Shown: positions 2,819-56,225 of the stretch, one piece after another
Layout of the letters: each line of letters starts with the position of its first letter
Position numbering within the stretch: position 1 is the first letter of the stretch
Assembly (NCBI GenBank): GCA_001443385.1
Contig: LDXP01000003.1
Location: 33,755-97,754, forward strand
Direction: 5' to 3'
Source of the DNA: Candidatus Rokubacteria bacterium CSP1-6
GTDB taxonomy: Bacteria > Methylomirabilota > Methylomirabilia > Rokubacteriales > CSP1-6
Length of the DNA stretch: 64,000 nucleotides
Made by a program: the position numbers and the translations under genes
The notes under the pieces: generated by a model
What the model was told of the DNA's origin: nothing
The model's database searches: none
Seen by the model: only the letters and a program-made list of their open reading frames with translations

Positions 2819-3937
2819 TCAAGGCCTGGTGATGATTCCGCCCCCGATGACCTGCTCCCCGTCGTAGAACACCACCGACTGCCCCGGGGTCACGGCGCGC
2901 TGGGGCTCGTCGAAGCGGACCTCGACGCGCCGCTCCCCAGGCTCCGCCTGGGGGCCCGCCAGCGGCCGGACCTCTGCCGGCGCCGGCGCGTGGCTGTGGC
3001 GGATCTTGGCCGCCACCCGGATCGCCTCGCCTGGCCAGTCGAACGGGATGAAATTGGTCTCGGCAGCCACGAGGCGCTCGCTCTCGAGGCCCTCGGCCTC
3101 GCCCACGACGACGGCGTTCCGCTCCGGGTCCAGCGCGAGCACGTAGAGGGGCCGCTCGGAGGTCACGCCGAGGCCGCGCCGCTGGCCCACGGTGTAGGCC
3201 GCGAGCCCCCGATGCTCTCCCAGTCGCCGCCCCGCGCGATCCACGATCGGGCCGGGACGGAACGCCTCGGGAATCCGGCGCCGCAGGAACCCCCGGTAGT
3301 CGTCGTCGGGAATGAAGCAGATCTCCATGCTCTCGGGCTTGTCCGCCACGGGAAGCCCGAGGGCGCGGGCCTTGGCGCGCACCTCCTCCTTGGTCAGCGC
3401 CCCGACGGGGAATTCAGCCGCGGCGAGTTGCGCCTGGGTCAGCGGCCAGAGAAAGTCCGACTGGTCCTTCCTGGGATCCCGCCCGCGCAACAAGAGGTAC
3501 CGGCCGGTCCGCGGATCTCGCTCCAGGCGCGCATAGTGGCCCGTGGCGACCGCCGTCGCCTCCCAGGCGCGCGCCCGGCGGAGCAGCGACCCGAACTTGA
3601 CCTCCTGGTTGCAGACGACACAGGGCACCGGCGTCCGCCCCGCCCGGTACTCGCGGGCGAAGTTGTCGATGACCGTGCGGTCGAACTCGCGCTCCGAGTT
3701 GAGGAGGTAATACGGAATCCCCAGCCGGCGGGCGACCTGCCGCGCGTCGTCCGCGGTCTGGGGCGAGCAGCAGCTGCCGAAGCGGCCGGGCGCGGCCTCG
3801 GGCTCCTGCCACGGCCACACGCGGAGCGTCACCCCCACGACGTCGTGCCCCTGCTCGACCAGGAGCGCGGCGGCCACCGAGGAATCGACGCCGCCGCTCA
3901 TGCCGACGACGACGCGCGCTGAATGCGACTCCCTCAT
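2819..3937 (-). CDS. mnmA: tRNA-specific 2-thiouridylase
   Basis: PP-loop motif SGGVDSS and the conserved MnmA core; start at the internal M (MRESHSARVVVGMSGGVDSS). ATGA overlap with the parB stop. The 144-codon N-terminal extension in the ORF track is an out-of-frame artefact. Confidence 0.85.
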   Translation of the reverse strand: MRESHSARVVVGMSGGVDSSVAAALLVEQGHDVVGVTLRVWPWQEPEAAPGRFGSCCSPQTADDARQVARRLGIPYYLLNSEREFDRTVIDNFAREYRAGRTPVPCVVCNQEVKFGSLLRRARAWEATAVATGHYARLERDPRTGRYLLLRGRDPRKDQSDFLWPLTQAQLAAAEFPVGALTKEEVRAKARALGLPVADKPESMEICFIPDDDYRGFLRRRIPEAFRPGPIVDRAGRRLGEHRGLAAYTVGQRRGLGVTSERPLYVLALDPERNAVVVGEAEGLESERLVAAETNFIPFDWPGEAIRVAAKIRHSHAPAPAEVRPLAGPQAEPGERRVEVRFDEPQRAVTPGQSVVFYDGEQVIGGGIITRP

Positions 3938-4776
3938 CACGGCTTCAGGGGGCTCCCCAAGATCTGCTCGACCAGCCGCTCGAGCTCTTCGCGCGACGCA
4001 TAGACGATCTCGATGCGGCCGCGGCGCTCGGACCCCACCAGGCGCACGCGCGTCGCCAGGCGCTCGCGGAGCTGATCCTCGAGGGCGGTCAGCTCGGCGG
4101 AGCGGCGCGCCGCCCGCCGCGGGATGTGGCTCCGCTGGACCCCTTCCTCCGTCGTGCGCACCGACCACGAGTGGGCGAGGATCTCCTCTCTGAGCTTCAG
4201 CTGGTCGGCCGCCGAGGTCAGCGAGAGGAGCGCCCGCGCGTGGCCCATGGTGAGCCGTCCGGCTCTGAGATCGTCCTGGATGACCGCCGGGAGCTTGAGG
4301 AGGCGCAGGCAGTTGGCGATCGAGCTCCGGTCCTTCCCCACGCGCCCGGCCAGCTCCTCCTGGGTCCACCCAAACTCGGCCAGCAGGCGCTGGTAGGCTT
4401 CCGCTTCCTCCATGGGGTTGAGATCTTCGCGGAGCAGATTCTCGACGAGGGCCAGCTCGAGGCTCTCGGCGTCCGTCGCCTCCCGGATCACCGCCGGGAC
4501 GCGCTCGAGGCCCGCCAGCTTGGCCGCGCGGAGCCGGCGCTCACCGACAATCAGCTGATAGCCGCTTCCCACCCGCCGCACGACCACCGGCTGGAGGACC
4601 CCGGACTGGCGCATGGACGCGGAGAGATCTTGTAACCCATTAATATTAAAGGATTTTCGTGGCTGGTTGGGGTTTGGACCGATCTCCTCGATGGGGATCT
4701 CGCGGAGGGTCTCCCCTTCCGCCGGGCTCGCGGAAAGTAGCGCGCCGAGTCCTCTCCCCAGCCCCCGCTTAGTCAT
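3937..4776 (-). CDS. parB: Chromosome partitioning protein ParB (Spo0J)
   Basis: ParB-box GERRLRAA with HTH and C-terminal dimerisation region; operonic with parA. Confidence 0.9.
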   Translation of the reverse strand: MTKRGLGRGLGALLSASPAEGETLREIPIEEIGPNPNQPRKSFNINGLQDLSASMRQSGVLQPVVVRRVGSGYQLIVGERRLRAAKLAGLERVPAVIREATDAESLELALVENLLREDLNPMEEAEAYQRLLAEFGWTQEELAGRVGKDRSSIANCLRLLKLPAVIQDDLRAGRLTMGHARALLSLTSAADQLKLREEILAHSWSVRTTEEGVQRSHIPRRAARRSAELTALEDQLRERLATRVRLVGSERRGRIEIVYASREELERLVEQILGSPLKP

Positions 4777-5518
4777 GGGCGAGCACCTCCTTGGTGAGTT
4801 CGAGGTACGCCAGGGCGCCGCTCGAGCGCAGGTCGTAGAGCAGAATGGGCTTGCCGTGGCTCGGCGCCTCCGAGAGCCGGACGTTCCGTGGGATGACGGT
4901 CTGGAAGATCTGGCCGCTGAAGTAGCGGTGAACCTCCGCCTTCACCTGCCCGGCCAGGCTCGTCCGCCCGTCGAACATCGTCAGGACGATGCCTTCCACC
5001 TCCAGCCGCGGATTCAAGCGATCCCTCACGAGACGGACGGTCTTGAGGAGCTGGGCCAACCCCTCGAGGGCGTAGAACTCGCACTGAAGCGGAACCAGGG
5101 CTGAATCCGCGGCGGTGAGGGCGTTAATGGTCAGGAGGCCGAGAGAGGGCGGACAGTCCAGCAGGACATAGTCGAACTTGCCCCGCAGCGGCTCGAGCGC
5201 GTCCTTCAGCTTGGATTCCCTTCCTGGAAGCCCCACCAGCTCCACTTCAGCGCCGACCAGGTCGATATCCGCGGGCACCAGGAGGAGGTTGGGAATGGCC
5301 GTCTCGCGGATCGCCTTCTCCAGAGGCTCCCCACCCAGCAGGACATGGTAGATCGTGGGATAGAGCTCCTCCTTCGACAGGCCGAGTCCCGTGGTGGCAT
5401 TGCCCTGAGGGTCGAGATCCACCAAAAGCGTGGGGCGATCGGCCACGGCGAGCCCCGCGGCGAGATTCACCGCCGTCGTGGTCTTGCCGACTCCCCCCTT
5501 CTGGTTGACCACCGCCAT
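4769..5518 (-). CDS. parA: Chromosome partitioning ATPase ParA (Soj)
   Basis: Deviant Walker A KGGVGKTT; start set at MAVVNQKGG (ATG 5518). The upstream extension in the ORF track covers the parS sites. Confidence 0.9.
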   Translation of the reverse strand: MAVVNQKGGVGKTTTAVNLAAGLAVADRPTLLVDLDPQGNATTGLGLSKEELYPTIYHVLLGGEPLEKAIRETAIPNLLLVPADIDLVGAEVELVGLPGRESKLKDALEPLRGKFDYVLLDCPPSLGLLTINALTAADSALVPLQCEFYALEGLAQLLKTVRLVRDRLNPRLEVEGIVLTMFDGRTSLAGQVKAEVHRYFSGQIFQTVIPRNVRLSEAPSHGKPILLYDLRSSGALAYLELTKEVLAHD

Positions 5519-5549
5519 CACCCGTCCCACCAATCGTCCCCCCCCCTTG

Positions 5550-5565
5550 TGTTTCACGTGGAACA
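5550..5565. promoter_or_regulatory. parS centromere-like site 1 (TGTTTCACGTGGAACA)
   Basis: 15/16 match to the canonical parS palindrome TGTTNCACGTGAAACA; lies in the rsmG-parA intergenic region. Confidence 0.75.
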
Positions 5566-5576
5566 CACTGCGCAAT

Positions 5577-9025: not shown

Positions 9026-9045
9026 TTATCCACACGTGTGGATAA
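9026..9045. promoter_or_regulatory. Palindromic pair of consensus DnaA boxes (TTATCCACACGTGTGGATAA) upstream of dnaA
   Basis: TTATCCACA at 9026-9034 and TGTGGATAA at 9037-9045, both perfect matches to the DnaA box consensus, ~50 bp before the dnaA start. Confidence 0.7.
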
Positions 9046-9090: not shown

Positions 9091-10410
9091 ATGCTTGAAA
9101 GCCTCTGGACCCGGCTGCTCTCCTCACTCGAGCACAAGATTCCCGAGGCCGCGCTCGACACGTGGGTCCGCTCGAGCCGCTTGATGGCTGTCGAGGGCGA
9201 TCGCCTTCAGATCGCGGCTCCCAATAAGTTCTCGCGCGACTGGCTGGCGGAACACTACCTTCCCGCCCTCGCCGCGGCCGCCCAGGACTGCCTCGGGGGA
9301 AACCCCCAGGTCTCCATCGTGGTGGACGCGACGCCCGCCCCCGCACGGTCGCCCGGCGACGACGCGGCGCTGCCGGCGCCGACCTCCACGGCCTCCGGGC
9401 TCAACCCCCGCTACACGTTCGAGACGTTTGTCGTCGGCTCGTCCAACCAGTTCGCCCAGGCGGCCTGCCAGGCCGTGGCCGAACTGCCCAGCAAGGCCTA
9501 CAACCCGCTCTTCATCTACGGCGGGGTCGGCCTGGGGAAGACCCACCTCCTCCACGCCGTCGGCCATCAGATCACCCGCCTCTTCCCCGGCCTCCATGTG
9601 CTCTACCTCTCCTCGGAGCGCTTCACCAACGACCTCATCAACGCCATCCGCTACGACCGCACCGCCGAGTTCCGCGCCAAGTACCGGACCATCGACCTCC
9701 TCCTGATCGACGACATCCAGTTCATCTCCGGCAAGGAGCGCACGCAGGAGGAGTTCTTCCACACGTTCAACGACCTCTACGACTCCCGCAAGCAGATCGT
9801 CGTGTCCAGTGACAGCACGCCCAAGGAGATCCCGGAGATCGAGGAGCGCCTGCGCTCGCGCTTCGAGTGGGGGCTCATCGCCGACATCCAGCCCCCCGAC
9901 TTCGAGACGCGGGTGGCCATTTTGAAAAAGAAGGCCGGCGTCGAGCGCGTGCGCCTGTCGGACGACGTGGCCTATCTGATTGCCAGCCGCGTCAAGTCCA
10001 ACATCCGCGAACTCGAGGGCTCCCTCACGCGCATGATCGCCTTCTGCGCGCTGACCGGTCGGGAGATGACCCCCGACCTGGCCCAGGATGTCCTCTCCGA
10101 CCTTTGGGGCGAGGATGAGCGGATCATCACCCTCGAACAGATCCAGCGGAAGGTGTCCGACTTCTTCGGCATGAAGCTGTCGGACCTCAAGGCCAAAAAC
10201 CGGACGCGGGCCATTGCCTTCCCGCGCCAGATCGCCATGTACCTCGCCCGCCAGCTCACCACCGCCTCCCTGCTGGAGATCGGCCGCGCGTTCGGCGGGA
10301 AGGATCACACCACCGTCCTACACGCTGTGGATAAGATCACCCTGCTGCTCCAAGAAGACCCCAAACTGCGCAAGACGATCGACACCCTCACCCAGGGAAT
10401 CGCCTCGTGA
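9091..10410 (+). CDS. dnaA: Chromosomal replication initiator protein DnaA
   Basis: AAA+ Walker A GGVGLGKTHLL, the sensor/box VII region, and the C-terminal DNA-binding domain (AIAFPRQIAMYLARQLT...KDHTTVLHA). Confidence 0.95.
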   Translation: MLESLWTRLLSSLEHKIPEAALDTWVRSSRLMAVEGDRLQIAAPNKFSRDWLAEHYLPALAAAAQDCLGGNPQVSIVVDATPAPARSPGDDAALPAPTSTASGLNPRYTFETFVVGSSNQFAQAACQAVAELPSKAYNPLFIYGGVGLGKTHLLHAVGHQITRLFPGLHVLYLSSERFTNDLINAIRYDRTAEFRAKYRTIDLLLIDDIQFISGKERTQEEFFHTFNDLYDSRKQIVVSSDSTPKEIPEIEERLRSRFEWGLIADIQPPDFETRVAILKKKAGVERVRLSDDVAYLIASRVKSNIRELEGSLTRMIAFCALTGREMTPDLAQDVLSDLWGEDERIITLEQIQRKVSDFFGMKLSDLKAKNRTRAIAFPRQIAMYLARQLTTASLLEIGRAFGGKDHTTVLHAVDKITLLLQEDPKLRKTIDTLTQGIAS

Positions 10411-10441
10411 TCCACGCTCATCCCATCCCTGCCCACCGGCG

Positions 10442-10450
10442 TATCCACAG
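10442..10450. promoter_or_regulatory. DnaA-box-like nonamer TATCCACAG
   Basis: 8/9 match to TTATCCACA in the dnaA-dnaN intergenic region. Confidence 0.5.
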
Positions 10451-10532
10451 TCCGCTGGTTCGGCCCGGCCTTTCCCTGCGGGGACTTCGGCCTTCTCCCC
10501 GCCATCCCGCCGGCGAGTACGACTACGACTAC

Positions 10533-10580
10533 TCAGAAGTCTTAATTTCTTTTCTTAAGACTATAAGTTCTCTTTAGAGT
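10533..10580. other. Candidate oriC DNA-unwinding element: AT-rich tract with a perfect 8-bp inverted repeat AGTCTTAA/TTAAGACT
   Basis: About 50 bp at >70% AT inside a ~68% GC genome, sited between dnaA and dnaN next to a DnaA box; the dnaA-dnaN intergenic origin is common in many phyla. Confidence 0.55.
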
Positions 10581-18020: not shown

Positions 18021-18026
18021 ACGCCG

Positions 18027-18113
18027 GAGGGGTGGCCGAGCGGTTGAAGGCGCCGGTCTTGAAAACCGGAATCCCGCAAGGGATCGGGGGTTCGAATCCC
18101 TCCCCCTCCGCCA
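18027..18113 (+). tRNA. tRNA-Ser (anticodon TGA)
   Basis: Cloverleaf with GGAGGGG acceptor, anticodon loop CTTGAAA, long variable arm, T-loop TTCGAAT, and an encoded CCA. Confidence 0.85.
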
Positions 18114-18116
18114 AAT

Positions 18117-18190
18117 CCTCGGAGGGGGGCTCCGCCCCCCTTCCGACGCCCCGCGGCAAAGCCGGCGCGCGAAGCACGCGCGCTTTCGCC
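18117..18190 (+). repeat. Intergenic G/C-rich hairpin repeat, copy 1
   Basis: The 30-nt core CCTCGGAGGGGGGCTCCGCCCCCCTTCCGA is identical to the core at 48886 and to the reverse complement of 62491-62519; followed by the GGCAAAGCC hairpin motif. Confidence 0.8.
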
Positions 18191-18230
18191 AGAGCCCGGA
18201 ATGCCTTATAGTGGGTAGGCTTGACGCTTG

Positions 18231-18324
18231 GGAGAGGTGGCCGAGTTGGCCGAAGGCAGCCGCCTGCTAAGCGGTTACAGGGGCAAAACCTCTGTCCCGG
18301 GTTCGAATCCCGGCCTCTCCGCCA
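18231..18324 (+). tRNA. tRNA-Ser (anticodon GCT)
   Basis: Acceptor GGAGAGG, anticodon loop CTGCTAA, long variable arm, T-loop TTCGAAT, encoded CCA. Confidence 0.85.
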
Positions 18325-18326
18325 TC

Positions 18327-18403
18327 GCGCCCATAGCTCAGTTGGATAGAGCGTCGGACTACGAATCCGAAGGCCGCAGGTTCAAGTCCTGCTGGGCGCA
18401 CCA
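18327..18403 (+). tRNA. tRNA-Arg (anticodon ACG)
   Basis: GCGCCCATAGCTCAGTTGGATAGAGC... with anticodon loop CTACGAA and encoded CCA; 2 nt after tRNA-Ser(GCT). Confidence 0.9.
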
Positions 18404-18407
18404 TTTC

Positions 18408-18440
18408 GACCCCCCGGGAGGGCGCCACTCTCGGGGGGTC
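18408..18440 (+). terminator. GC-rich hairpin after the tRNA pair (GACCCCCCGGGAG...CTCTCGGGGGGTC)
   Basis: A 12-13-bp near-perfect inverted repeat right after tRNA-Arg; no U-tract, so the terminator or processing role is inferred. Confidence 0.4.
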
Positions 18441-18480
18441 CTTCGCTTCGCTGCCTGACCCCATCGTCCGGGTGTGCTAG

Positions 18481-18960
<480 letters not shown>

Positions 18961-18962
18961 TG

Positions 18963-19058
18963 CGGAGGGGTGGCCGAGCCCGGTTGAAGGCGTCCGACTC
19001 GAAATCGGATAGGGGCCCAGAAGGTCCCTCGGGGGTTCAAATCCTCTCCCCTCCGCCA
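18963..19058 (+). tRNA. tRNA-Ser (anticodon CGA)
   Basis: Acceptor GGAGGGG, anticodon loop CTCGAAA, long variable arm, T-loop TTCAAAT, encoded CCA. Confidence 0.8.
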
Positions 19059-19061
19059 TAT

Positions 19062-19154
19062 GGAGAGGTGACCGAGCGGCCGAAGGTGCGGCATTGGAAA
19101 TGCCGTGCACGGGTAAACCCTGTGCCGTGGGTTCGAATCCCACCCTCTCCGCCA
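19062..19154 (+). tRNA. tRNA-Ser (anticodon GGA)
   Basis: Acceptor GGAGAGG, anticodon loop TTGGAAA, long variable arm, T-loop TTCGAAT, encoded CCA. Confidence 0.85.
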
Positions 19155-53926: not shown

Positions 53927-54424
53927 GTGGCGATCCAGCGGACCCCCATGACCCGGCAGGGCTTCGACCGTCTCAAGGCCGAGCTCGAGCGGCTCCGGCG
54001 GGAGGAGCGTCCCCGGATCACCAAGGCGATCGCCGAAGCGCGGAGCCACGGCGATCTGGCGGAGAACGCCGAGTACCACGCGGCCCGGGAGAAGCAGTCC
54101 TTCATCGAAGGGCGCATCATGGAGCTGCAAGCCAAGGTGGCCCACGCGGAAGTCATCGACCCGCCGACCAACGGCGACCGGGTGACCTTCGGATCCACCG
54201 TTCGCCTCCAGGACGCGGATGGCAAGGAAGTGCGCTACTGGATCGTGGGCTCGGATGAGGCGGAGCCGACGAAGGGCAGGATCTCGATTATGTCGCCCTT
54301 GGCCCGCACGCTGATTGGCAAGGAAGTTGGCCAGGCGGTGACCGCCCAGCTGCCCGGCGGAAAGAAGACCTACGAGATCCTCGCGGTCAACTTCCCCTGG
54401 GGGGAGGGCGCGGGAAAGGGCTAG
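53927..54424 (+). CDS. greA: Transcription elongation factor GreA
   Basis: N-terminal coiled-coil (PMTRQGFDRLKAELERL) and the C-terminal FKBP-like domain. Confidence 0.9.
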   Translation: MAIQRTPMTRQGFDRLKAELERLRREERPRITKAIAEARSHGDLAENAEYHAAREKQSFIEGRIMELQAKVAHAEVIDPPTNGDRVTFGSTVRLQDADGKEVRYWIVGSDEAEPTKGRISIMSPLARTLIGKEVGQAVTAQLPGGKKTYEILAVNFPWGEGAGKG

Positions 54425-54438
54425 CTCCCGGCGCGGTG

Positions 54439-55590
54439 CTAGTTGCGAAGGGCCTCGCGCAGCTCCCGCGTGAGCGTTTCGACCGTTCCCCGCGTGCCGC
54501 CCGCCAGCTTCTGCCGCCACTCGCCCTCCGTCTCGAAGCGGCGGTCGCCCAGCCGGGTTCCCCAGGGTTTGATGGCCTCGCGGATGGCGTGGAGGTCGAA
54601 CGGATCCTTCCGGAGCTCCCGCGCCCGCGCCATCACGTCGGGCGCCACCCGGATGAAGGCCCGGAGCGCCGCGCCCGTTTTGATCGAGTATTTCCGGCCC
54701 GCCCACGCGCTCGGGAAGACGCCGGCCACGGCCTTCGTGTAGTTCAGGAAGAACCGCTTGGCGCCCTGCCGGAGCTCCGAGATCCGGGCGCTGCCGCCGA
54801 CGTTTTCCACCGTCTCCAGGAAGTCCACCATCTCCTCGGCGAGCGGGGCCTGGGAGACCCTCCCCCGCCCGGTGCCGAGCATCTTGATGTCGCCGTGAAG
54901 CGGGGACGTCTCGTCCTCGTTCAGCGAGCGGATGACGTCGTGAGCCAGCGCCTGGTTGGGGTCCGGATAGAGCTTGCGTCCGGCGAGGCTCACGATATGG
55001 GAGGGGTTGAGCCGCGTGTGCTTGGCGTTGATCGTGACGAAGAGCTCCACGGTCTGCCGGGCGTCCAGCGTGTCGAAGAGCACCGCCGGGACCTCGATCC
55101 CCAGGACCTCTCCGGCCTGGGTCAGGGCGTGGAGCGCCAAGAGCCGGTGCTGGCCGTCGAGGACGCGGAGCACCCCGTGCTCCTCGGGGATCTGGAGCAG
55201 CCCGAGGTCGTGGTGGCTCGCCATCGGGGTGAAGGTGAAGCGCTTCTCCGAGGTGATGATGACCGCCCCCGGGATCGCCGGCAGGGTGCCGGCCTCCTTG
55301 CACTCCCGGTAGTAGGTGGCGAGCTCTTCGATCTTCCGGCGGATCACCGGCCGCTGGTAGGCGCCCTCGCTCTCCGCGATTCGCTTTTCCAGCATCTCCC
55401 AGTTGACCCGTGCCCGGGCGGCGCGCTTGGCCTTCGGGGGCTCCTTGGGCAACCCGCCCTCGTAGCCGAGGACCTCGAATTTCACCAGGCGGTCGATGTC
55501 CTTGGCCGAAAACGACGCCTGATAGAACTCGAGCCCGAATTGTTTTACGCGATGGGCAGGAACCGTGATCATGGGTGTTTTCCCGAACAC
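54439..55590 (-). CDS. DGQHR-domain protein, DndB-like (orphan; no dndCDE nearby)
   Basis: Exact motif VLDGQHRLLAL, N-terminal FGLEFYQASFSAKDI region, and ~380 aa, consistent with DndB-family ParB-like-fold proteins. Confidence 0.65.
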   Translation of the reverse strand: MFGKTPMITVPAHRVKQFGLEFYQASFSAKDIDRLVKFEVLGYEGGLPKEPPKAKRAARARVNWEMLEKRIAESEGAYQRPVIRRKIEELATYYRECKEAGTLPAIPGAVIITSEKRFTFTPMASHHDLGLLQIPEEHGVLRVLDGQHRLLALHALTQAGEVLGIEVPAVLFDTLDARQTVELFVTINAKHTRLNPSHIVSLAGRKLYPDPNQALAHDVIRSLNEDETSPLHGDIKMLGTGRGRVSQAPLAEEMVDFLETVENVGGSARISELRQGAKRFFLNYTKAVAGVFPSAWAGRKYSIKTGAALRAFIRVAPDVMARARELRKDPFDLHAIREAIKPWGTRLGDRRFETEGEWRQKLAGGTRGTVETLTRELREALRN

Positions 55591-55680
55591 CCACTTTAGA
55601 CGAAGCCCAAACCCCTGTCAACAGAGGACTTTCCGGCCTCAATCCTGTCTTGACACGATATCTGGGGTTAAATGGTAGAG

Positions 55681-55712
55681 TTATCCACGACATGTGGGGA
55701 TTTTGTGGATAA
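55681..55712. promoter_or_regulatory. Inverted pair of DnaA-box-like nonamers (TTATCCACG ... TGTGGATAA) upstream of the DndB-like gene
   Basis: An 8/9 match and a 9/9 match to the DnaA box in opposite orientation, 16 bp apart, in an AT-richer intergenic region that also holds a consensus TTGACA at 55650-55655. Confidence 0.45.
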
Positions 55713-55823
55713 GCCCAATGAGTCGAACTTCGTTTGAAGCCTAGCGAATGTGAAGGTTTCCGGGGGGTTTGGGGGTAGAATCGAGCGCGGGAGGTTCAAG
55801 ACCGCGCAGATCGGGAGGGAAGG

Positions 55824-56225
55824 ATGACTCGTCTCTGGACGTTCATGACCATCGCGCTGGCGCTGCTGCTCCCCGTCGCCTCCGCTTCGGCCCAGGCGCC
55901 CCCGCACATCCAGGCGGCCCACGAGTTCCTGCTGGGCTGGGGCAAGGCGAACTGGGACGCCGTGAAAGCCCACGCGGCGGACAAGGTGACCGTGAAGGTC
56001 GGCGGCGCCGACTACGCGCTCGACGTGGCAGGGAAGAAGGCCGAGGTCCAGCTGATCTTTCCTTTCCGCGGCCTCGCCGCCGTCCGGGTGGGGGCGAACG
56101 TCAAAGGCGTCACCGTCGAGGAGATCACGGTCAGGGCCGGCGGCGCCGAGCGGAAGGGCAAGGGGACGGTGACGCTCGAGGAGAAAGACGGGAAGTTCAC
56201 CGTGACGAGCGTCGCAGTCGAATAA
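55824..56225 (+). CDS. Secreted hypothetical protein
   Basis: Signal peptide MTRLWTFMTIALALLLPVASASAQA; no recognisable domain. Confidence 0.5.
   Translation: MTRLWTFMTIALALLLPVASASAQAPPHIQAAHEFLLGWGKANWDAVKAHAADKVTVKVGGADYALDVAGKKAEVQLIFPFRGLAAVRVGANVKGVTVEEITVRAGGAERKGKGTVTLEEKDGKFTVTSVAVE

Follow-up and report, generated by a model that had tools for sequence, protein, structure and literature searches.

Why does a DGQHR-domain gene, of a kind normally read as part of DNA-modification defence together with the DndB-like proteins, stand alone in a bacterial chromosome with inverted DnaA-box-like nonamers upstream of it? The gene lies on the reverse strand of a 64,000-nucleotide (nt) stretch of contig LDXP01000003.1 from Candidatus Rokubacteria bacterium CSP1-6. 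We call this whole stretch the window, and positions refer to it unless stated otherwise. An earlier annotation made from the letters alone (the sequence-only reading) had offered several explanations: a solo regulator or nuclease-fold protein from a decayed modification or defence island, DnaA titration or DnaA-regulated expression, or an unknown palindromic operator.

All our claims rest on comparative sequence analysis only. We favour, with a probability of roughly 0.6, DnaA-coupled and probably autoregulated expression of a nucleoside triphosphate (NTP)-dependent DNA-binding protein, encoded by a solo core gene with a strong promoter of its own. In an uncultured phylum, this would concretely tie a ParB-fold NTPase to the initiator of replication. 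One DGQHR subfamily here behaves as a core gene, which warns against labelling orphan DGQHR genes "decayed defence". The analysis had two wider by-products: a precisely spaced three-box DnaA module, and an association of Myxococcota DGQHR genes with type I-G CRISPR-Cas.

A stand-alone member of the DGQHR branch

The open reading frame at 54439-55590 (reverse strand) is intact, spans 383 amino acids (aa) from a GTG codon at 55590 and contains LDGQHR. Homologues are all 375-378 aa long with the N-terminus MIT(V)P, which places the true start at the ATG at 55572. The reading frame and motif described by the sequence-only reading therefore stand, while its length of 383 aa is corrected to 377.

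The protein matches the generic DGQHR model TIGR03187 (NCBIfam) over model positions 1-276 of 276, with 118.7 bits against a cut-off of 58.85. Pfam DndB (PF14072) covers the N-terminal half only (57 bits, cut-off 29.1), in line with the DndB-like N-terminus noticed earlier. The more specific models stay far below their cut-offs: 26.2 bits against 328 for the DndB equivalog TIGR03233, 49.7 against 300 for the DpdB equivalog NF041060, and 44.9 against 450 for the dnd-associated DGQHR protein 1 (TIGR04172). The comparison of TIGR03187 with TIGR03233 that had been suggested as a check thus comes out for the generic family. PADLOC likewise gives weak DpdB and DndB matches (DndB 26 bits).

The DGQHR domain is defined by three motifs, QR, DGQHR and FxxxN (PMC4619093). 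The corresponding residues Q73-R74, D139-G-Q-H-R143, and F178 with N182 are invariant in two alignments reaching down to 21% identity, and the N-terminal domain is of the ParB/Srx fold. The C-terminal half is helical and contains no nuclease-type motif and no invariant His or Asn motif in either alignment. GmrSD_N (DUF262) scores 15.5 bits against a cut-off of 33.2 and no nuclease domain (DUF1524/HNH) is matched, which sets the protein apart from the GmrSD/SspE/DndI class. Nor is it the chromosomal ParB: the Pfam domains ParB_N, HTH_ParB and ParB_C are absent, and the canonical ParB of the genome is a separate gene at 3937-4776 (3937-5575 together with ParA). Solved structures detectable by sequence were not found. 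Within the ParB/Srx superfamily, the protein belongs to the DGQHR (DndB/DpdB-like) branch, of which it is a solo representative.

DndB shares with it the N-terminal DGQHR/ParB-Srx domain, the QR/DGQHR/FxxxN motifs and a length of ~360-380 aa. It regulates the dndBCDE DNA-phosphorothioation operon and represses its own gene as a homodimer at paired palindromes, TACG-N10-CGTA, in its promoter (PMC4507180). DpdB (NF041060), the ATPase partner of DpdA in 7-deazaguanine DNA modification, is a homodimeric ATPase stimulated by DNA (PMC10164549). ATP modulates the binding of DndB to its palindromes. The two proteins are the precedents for a dimeric, NTP-switched DNA-binding protein of the DGQHR type (PMC4507180, PMC10164549, PMC10853773). 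By analogy, the window protein most likely forms a homodimer and binds DNA in an NTP-switched manner; its NTPase activity and its cellular role are putative in the same sense.

Further differences from these systems lie in motif and context. The window motif is DGQHR and not the DGQQR of DpdB, no dpdA or dpdC lies near the gene, and dndCDE is absent both near it and from the 83 related loci examined. Among all open reading frames of 47-61 kb, Pfam detected no dnd, dpd, ssp or cas genes and no TGT-like gene, and no dnd, dpd or ssp partners occur in any related locus examined. The claim that dnd and ssp partners are missing nearby is thus borne out. The protein also does not fall into a housekeeping family lacking the DGQHR fold, and no dnd or ssp genes adjoin it.

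A conserved core gene of Rokubacteria

Relatives occur in at least 242 species genomes of Rokubacteria/Methylomirabilota in a scan of species-representative genomes. The best 80 of these are 82-97% identical and, bar a few oddly labelled bins, all come from Rokubacteria/Methylomirabilota. The reading frame is intact in all 80 of these genome-derived loci. Downstream, greA lies convergent to the gene in 64 of 83 fetched loci, and the DGQHR protein exceeds GreA in conservation in 61 of 61 loci (mean 86.3% vs 74.4%). The GC content at third codon positions (GC3) is 0.92, a coding-type, native value that matches the neighbouring genes. The GreA comparison, the conserved synteny, the native GC3 and the presence in at least 242 genomes together argue for strong purifying selection, not decay. 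Judged by these comparisons, the gene is a vertically inherited core gene in Rokubacteria and not part of a defence island; DndB differs in this respect as well.

These results contradict the view that the gene is a remnant of a decayed dnd, dpd or ssp island, possibly non-functional, with boxes that are chance matches in AT-rich DNA. It is true that dnd and dpd clusters are the best-known home of DGQHR proteins, and that the nearest relatives outside the phylum occupy CRISPR-Cas defence loci. Against this stand the intact frames, the GC3 and the GreA comparison, together with a fixed chromosomal position, a conserved promoter and DnaA boxes kept in 31 loci, where chance would supply 2.17 boxes per 64 kb. 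We regard decay as extremely improbable, and this part of the sequence-only reading does not hold.

Seven loci with orthologues 84-88% identical (L019, L020, L031, L036, L038, L062 and L066) are labelled Binatia, Verrucomicrobiia, Acidoferrum, Limnocylindria or Eisenbacteria. They are probably Rokubacteria contigs mis-binned into other metagenome-assembled genomes.

A strong promoter with a palindrome over the -35 element

The region upstream of the gene has a GC content of 51-52%, against 68.5% for the window, as the sequence-only reading had noticed. It contains a sigma-70-type promoter (Table 1) whose hexamers match at 10 of 12 positions (0.1 expected), and the predicted transcription start near 55586 leaves a leader of ~14 nt. 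TTGACA, also noticed earlier, is present in two copies: the one at 55621..55616 (reverse strand) is the -35 element of the gene, and the other lies at 55650-55655 on the forward strand. All 80 distinct upstream sequences share the pattern TTGAC(A)-17-TAnAnT, in which TTGAC is invariant and TAnAnT conserved. Beside the hexamers, an A-tract just 5' of the -35 and GGGGTTT just 3' of it, in the spacer, are conserved at 76-100%.

The A-tract and GGGGTTT form a palindrome centred on the -35, AAACCCCT-N8-AGGGGTTT, which is perfect (8+8) in 32 loci. The sequence TTGACAGGGGTTT was found at the DGQHR promoter in 49 loci. Neither the perfect palindrome nor TTGACAGGGGTTT occurs elsewhere in 950 kb of the same genomes, so the -35 palindrome is specific to this gene. 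A phylum-wide promoter feature, considered as the source of GGGGTTT and TTGACAGGGGTTT, is ruled out by the absence of TTGACAGGGGTTT outside the DGQHR promoter in the same 950 kb. DndB self-represses via palindromes of a different sequence (TACG-N10-CGTA vs AAACCCCT-N8-AGGGGTTT).

The upstream regions fall into two classes, each matching one clade in the tree of the protein. In the first, which takes in about half of the orthologues (loci L015, L034 and L037-L058 among them), the ATG follows the -35 by 35-40 nt, mostly 37-40 nt; there is no space for a leader or a Shine-Dalgarno sequence, and the mRNA must be leaderless. In the leadered class the distance is 49-94 nt; with its 49 nt the window falls into this class, and leaders in its clade measure ~14-60 nt. 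A hairpin over the start codon (55572-55593) is no better than in shuffled sequences (z = -1.08). A scan of 55400-56000 against Rfam (E <= 1) gave no RNA family, and no tRNA lies at the locus.

The promoter spacer also contains GGGGTTTGGG (55606-55615, reverse strand), which recurs in inverted orientation at 55764-55773. This second copy lies just 5' of a TAGAAT hexamer that resembles a -10 element and faces the divergent 133-aa gene, and the pair may be a half-site for a shared regulator. We also considered a conserved divergent promoter that would place the DnaA boxes at the start of the 133-aa gene. Its -10 is unconserved in the closest relatives (judged by eye), and most loci with the boxes have a co-directional upstream gene; the idea was rejected.

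A conserved trio of DnaA boxes upstream of the promoter

The nonamers at 55681-55712 form a trio. On the forward strand it reads TTATCCACG-3-TGTGGGGAT-2-TGTGGATAA (figures are spacer lengths in nt), and in the gene's orientation TTATCCACA-aa-ATCCCCACA-tgt-CGTGGATAA, with two boxes pointing one way and the third inverted. The outer two, TTATCCACG on the forward strand and the perfect TTATCCACA on the reverse strand, are those that the sequence-only reading had singled out, and both are in place. The consensus in the gene's orientation is yyATCCmCA (box 1), 2 nt, yTACCCACA (box 2), 3 nt and the inverted box 3, TGTGGATAA.

The trio is conserved in 31 distinct leadered loci and the window. The spacers of 2 nt and 3 nt are invariant, the flanks have diverged, and 68-74 nt separate box 3 from the -35 downstream of it. 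Placed on the protein tree, the trio is a clade-wide, vertically kept feature, and one sub-clade carries two further boxes upstream of it.

Boxes with at most one mismatch number 7 in the window, where 2.17 are expected; this count was reached by 1 of 100 shuffles. Four boxes in the window are perfect, and three of these belong to the dnaA/oriC region (9026, 9037 and 10326). Across the window and 83 related loci, boxes with at most one mismatch have a density of 4.35/kb in the -260..-60 upstream regions and of 0.012/kb elsewhere in 965 kb, a difference of ~350-fold. Like the dnaA promoters, the clusters of B. subtilis, and DARS1/DARS2 and datA of E. coli, the locus shows TTATCCACA-type boxes clustered in an intergenic promoter region; several conserved 9-mers match TTATCCACA with 1-2 mismatches or fewer. 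It differs from known DnaA-regulated clusters in that the adjacent gene encodes a DGQHR protein, and here the DnaA site is putative. To our knowledge, a DGQHR gene is not part of any described DnaA regulon.

At a fixed distance from box 3 lies a second short palindrome-like motif (Table 1). An alignment of 32 loci gives it as CCCCA-N5-TGGGG, CACCA-tc-TGGTG or CCCTA-gat-ATAGGG, the arms co-varying. Such a motif may be bound by a protein with which it co-evolves, or may fold into a small hairpin. In the leaderless clade, loci L065 and L067 independently have two DnaA boxes in tandem, TGTGGATAAgTGTGGATAG, ~110-120 nt before the start of the gene, a second and separate case of DnaA boxes at this gene.

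The trio recurs upstream of dnaA in unrelated bacteria

Scanning metagenomes with the trio pattern returned at least 120 matching stretches, 80 of which were analysed. A DGQHR orthologue lies immediately downstream, in the right orientation, in 64 of these 80. The remainder comprises 7 stretches that end before the gene position, 1 with a disrupted gene copy and 8 low-GC contigs. Among high-GC contigs that could be judged, the trio is therefore directly upstream of the DGQHR gene in 64 of 65, the 65th being the disrupted copy.

The 8 low-GC contigs (33-50% GC) come from unrelated organisms and contain the same trio with the same spacers among further DnaA boxes. On 6 of them, which form three near-identical pairs, a dnaA gene was detected, with the trio 100-400 bp upstream of it; none of the 8 yielded a DGQHR gene. 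The contigs concerned are L096/L101, L107/L109, L124/L151, L140 and L153, with TTATCCACAagTTACCCACAattTGTGGATAA as an example of the sequence. The recurrence upstream of dnaA in unrelated low-GC bacteria indicates that the trio is very probably a real DnaA site and that, as far as sequence can tell, the nonamers are very probably true DnaA boxes. It also suggests that box, 2 nt, box, 3 nt, inverted box is an arrangement of precise spacing that is widely used for DnaA binding in dnaA promoter or oriC regions.

The same comparison bears on the possibility that some regulator other than DnaA, such as the DGQHR protein, uses the nonamers as its operator, and that their likeness to DnaA boxes is coincidental. 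The outer boxes do form an inverted repeat with 13-nt arms that are 85% complementary, and proteins of the DndB type bind palindromic sites in the promoters of their own genes (PMC4507180). The boxes nevertheless match both the consensus for DnaA and the pair that the genome has in front of dnaA, and the middle box, parallel to one of the outer boxes, would be superfluous in a simple palindromic operator. With the identical module upstream of dnaA in low-GC bacteria whose contigs yielded no DGQHR gene, we consider such an operator very unlikely. The unknown palindromic operator proposed for the nonamers by the sequence-only reading is unlikely for the same reason.

The window itself spans the chromosomal origin region. 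Its left end carries rpmH-dnaA-dnaN-gyrB-gyrA, yidC and parAB, and the cumulative GC-skew minimum falls at 8-12 kb, at dnaA, which places the origin (oriC) there. The DnaA-box pair TTATCCACAcgTGTGGATAA upstream of dnaA shows that the genome uses the standard DnaA box. The segment 10326-10590 is likely oriC. It contains DnaA boxes at 10326-10334, within the 3' end of dnaA, and at 10441-10449, and an AT-rich stretch at 10530-10580 in the dnaA-dnaN spacer. A second origin at 55.7 kb was considered and ruled out: the skew minimum lies at 8-12 kb and the skew is positive across 52-58 kb.

A proposed two-layered regulatory mechanism

We propose that the strong sigma-70-type promoter drives the DGQHR gene and is controlled in two layers. 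In the first, the protein would repress its own gene at the palindrome overlapping the -35. We infer this autoregulation by analogy, because the DndB homodimer represses its own promoter via palindromes. In the second layer, which would apply to the window's clade, DnaA would bind the three-box module ~70 bp upstream of the -35. DnaA at the trio would couple expression of the DGQHR gene to the level or activity of DnaA and hence to the replication cycle. That the trio is linked exclusively to the gene, at a nearly constant distance from the promoter, speaks for regulation of the DGQHR gene rather than for an independent element. Of the explanations offered by the sequence-only reading, DnaA-linked expression is thus the one that the conservation of the boxes and their fixed position relative to the promoter appear to support.

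Several observations weigh against this mechanism. The trio lies ~105-140 bp upstream of the predicted transcription start, which is far for simple activation or repression, and its distance of 68-74 bp from the -35 leaves a play of up to 6 bp, too much for strict helical phasing. Inside the trio clade the boxes have decayed in L002, L009, L016, L020 and L059, and the leaderless clade, about half of the orthologues, is without boxes except in two loci. The absence from that clade and the decay in some lineages indicate that DnaA control is dispensable for the gene. The -35 palindrome of the window is imperfect (6/8), and across the trio clade in general the left arm is degenerate. Finally, we infer the binding of DnaA to the trio, its regulatory effect and the direction of that effect from sequence comparison.

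It is possible that the trio instead serves DnaA itself. It would then be a chromosomal control element, DARS-like (reactivating ADP-DnaA), datA-like or titrating, that merely lies beside the DGQHR gene. Read on the forward strand, the trio runs box ->, 3 nt, <- box, 2 nt, <- box, with TTATCCACG opposed to TGTGGGGAT and TGTGGATAA. This is the topology of the DARS1 core of E. coli, and DARS1 likewise lies in a promoter region, that of uvrB (PMC6868365). The trio is also only ~46 kb from oriC, and it is the sole DnaA-box cluster in ~900 kb of non-origin Rokubacteria DNA sampled.

The spacing argues otherwise. In DARS, boxes II and III share one orientation and box I has the opposite one, and the distances of 5 bp (I-II) and 3 bp (II-III) are highly conserved (PMC6868365). 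We read the DARS1 core from NC_000913.3 as TTATCCACT-5-TGTGGATAA-3-TGTGTATTA, whereas the spacers of the trio measure 3 and 2 bp in each of 31 loci. The trio therefore shares the three-box topology of DARS and fails as a member on the defining feature of the class. In addition, among the 80 analysed of at least 120 matching stretches, high-GC contigs carry the trio only with the DGQHR gene, whose promoter it precedes by an almost constant interval, and half of the orthologous loci of the phylum are without it. The occurrence of the 2/3-spaced trio in dnaA promoter and oriC regions fits ordinary DnaA binding. We consider a DnaA-control element unlikely and retain DnaA-coupled expression of the DGQHR gene as the preferred explanation.

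Relatives outside the phylum

Clustering at 50% identity places the whole Rokubacterial group in one cluster; 1059 clusters were obtained at E <= 0.001, few of them full-length. The nearest clade outside the phylum is found in Myxococcota (P0127 clade). Its proteins are 47% identical over the full length, with the same length and motifs. On all 5 contigs examined the gene is the first after a WYL regulator and heads a type I-G CRISPR-Cas operon, in the order WYL regulator, DGQHR gene, a 150-200-aa reading frame without a family match, and type I-G cas genes. The latter are Cas3, Cas8g2 (TIGR04106), Csb1/Cas7g (TIGR02570) and Csb2 (TIGR02165); locus L210 also contains Cas4-Cas1, Cas2 and a CRISPR array of 26 repeats at 14-1943 of that locus. 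In the literature available to search, we found no report linking DGQHR or DndB-like proteins to CRISPR type I-U/I-G.

The window gene has no WYL regulator, small reading frame or type I-G cas context and does not belong to this class; its stop codon lies 14 nt from greA instead of next to a cas operon. The Rokubacterial gene may be a domesticated version of a defence-associated protein. A sister clade at 37% identity (P0162 group, L084-L086, one member labelled Planctomycetota) is also solo and has no DnaA boxes upstream.

A bolder combination would make the gene a domesticated offshoot of a type I-G CRISPR-Cas-associated ParB-like NTPase that is now a chromosomal DNA-binding factor coupled to replication, with the trio as a DARS-like or titration element feeding back on DnaA near the origin. 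We think this is quite unlikely. If true, a candidate phylum for which we know of no described control element of the DnaA cycle would have one, along with a protein partner dedicated to it.

Features and neighbouring genes

Table 1 Features of the DGQHR locus, with the reference DnaA-box pair and the Myxococcota loci
Feature	Position	Strand	Details
Reference DnaA-box pair	9026..9045		TTATCCACAcgTGTGGATAA; 46 nt upstream of dnaA (9091-10410)
greA	53927..54424	+	Convergent with the DGQHR gene; conserved syntenic partner; identified by Pfam
Solo DGQHR-domain gene	54439..55572	-	377 aa; N-terminal ParB/Srx-fold NTP-binding domain, then C-terminal helical domain
Sigma-70-type promoter of the DGQHR gene	55593..55621	-	-35 TTGACA 55621..55616, 17-nt spacer, -10 TAAAGT 55598..55593
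Operator-like palindrome centred on the -35	55609..55632	-	AAAGTCCT-CTGTTGAC-AGGGGTTT in the window; imperfect
Second short palindrome-like motif	55656..55667	-	CCCCAGATATCG; fixed ~21 nt from box 3
DnaA box, 1 mismatch	55681..55689	+	TTATCCACG; box 3 in the gene's orientation, CGTGGATAA
Middle degenerate DnaA box (box 2)	55693..55701	-	ATCCCCACA; yTACCCACA in most relatives
Perfect DnaA box	55704..55712	-	TTATCCACA; box 1 in the gene's orientation
133-aa hypothetical gene	55824..56225	+	Divergent; no Pfam match; present in 9 loci
DGQHR gene of Myxococcota loci L208-L212	6001-7146/7194 in each		

Along 47-61 kb, Pfam assigns PPIase, AcrB, a membrane-fusion protein, MarR and GreA before the DGQHR gene, and the 133-aa hypothetical gene, a FAD_binding_2 oxidoreductase, ABC ATPases and an amidohydrolase beyond it. 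Of the two neighbours named by the sequence-only reading, greA is confirmed; the FAD oxidoreductase is not a direct neighbour, as the 133-aa gene lies between. This small gene has a hydrophobic N-terminus resembling a putative signal peptide, and it adjoins the DGQHR gene only in the closest relatives of the window. Across the 83 loci the upstream neighbour is variable, being a DAO-type oxidoreductase, an EamA transporter, GDT1 or the 133-aa gene. Where further genes separate the DGQHR gene from greA, they are metabolic. The flanking genes identified in related loci are greA and metabolic or transport genes; no cas genes are among them.

The stop codons of greA and the DGQHR gene are separated by the 14 nt of 54425-54438, where no terminator-like site was found, and the two transcripts may overlap as antisense. 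Elsewhere in the window, 18026-19154 contains five tRNA genes, namely four tRNA-Ser isoacceptors (tga, gct, cga and gga) and tRNA-Arg(acg).

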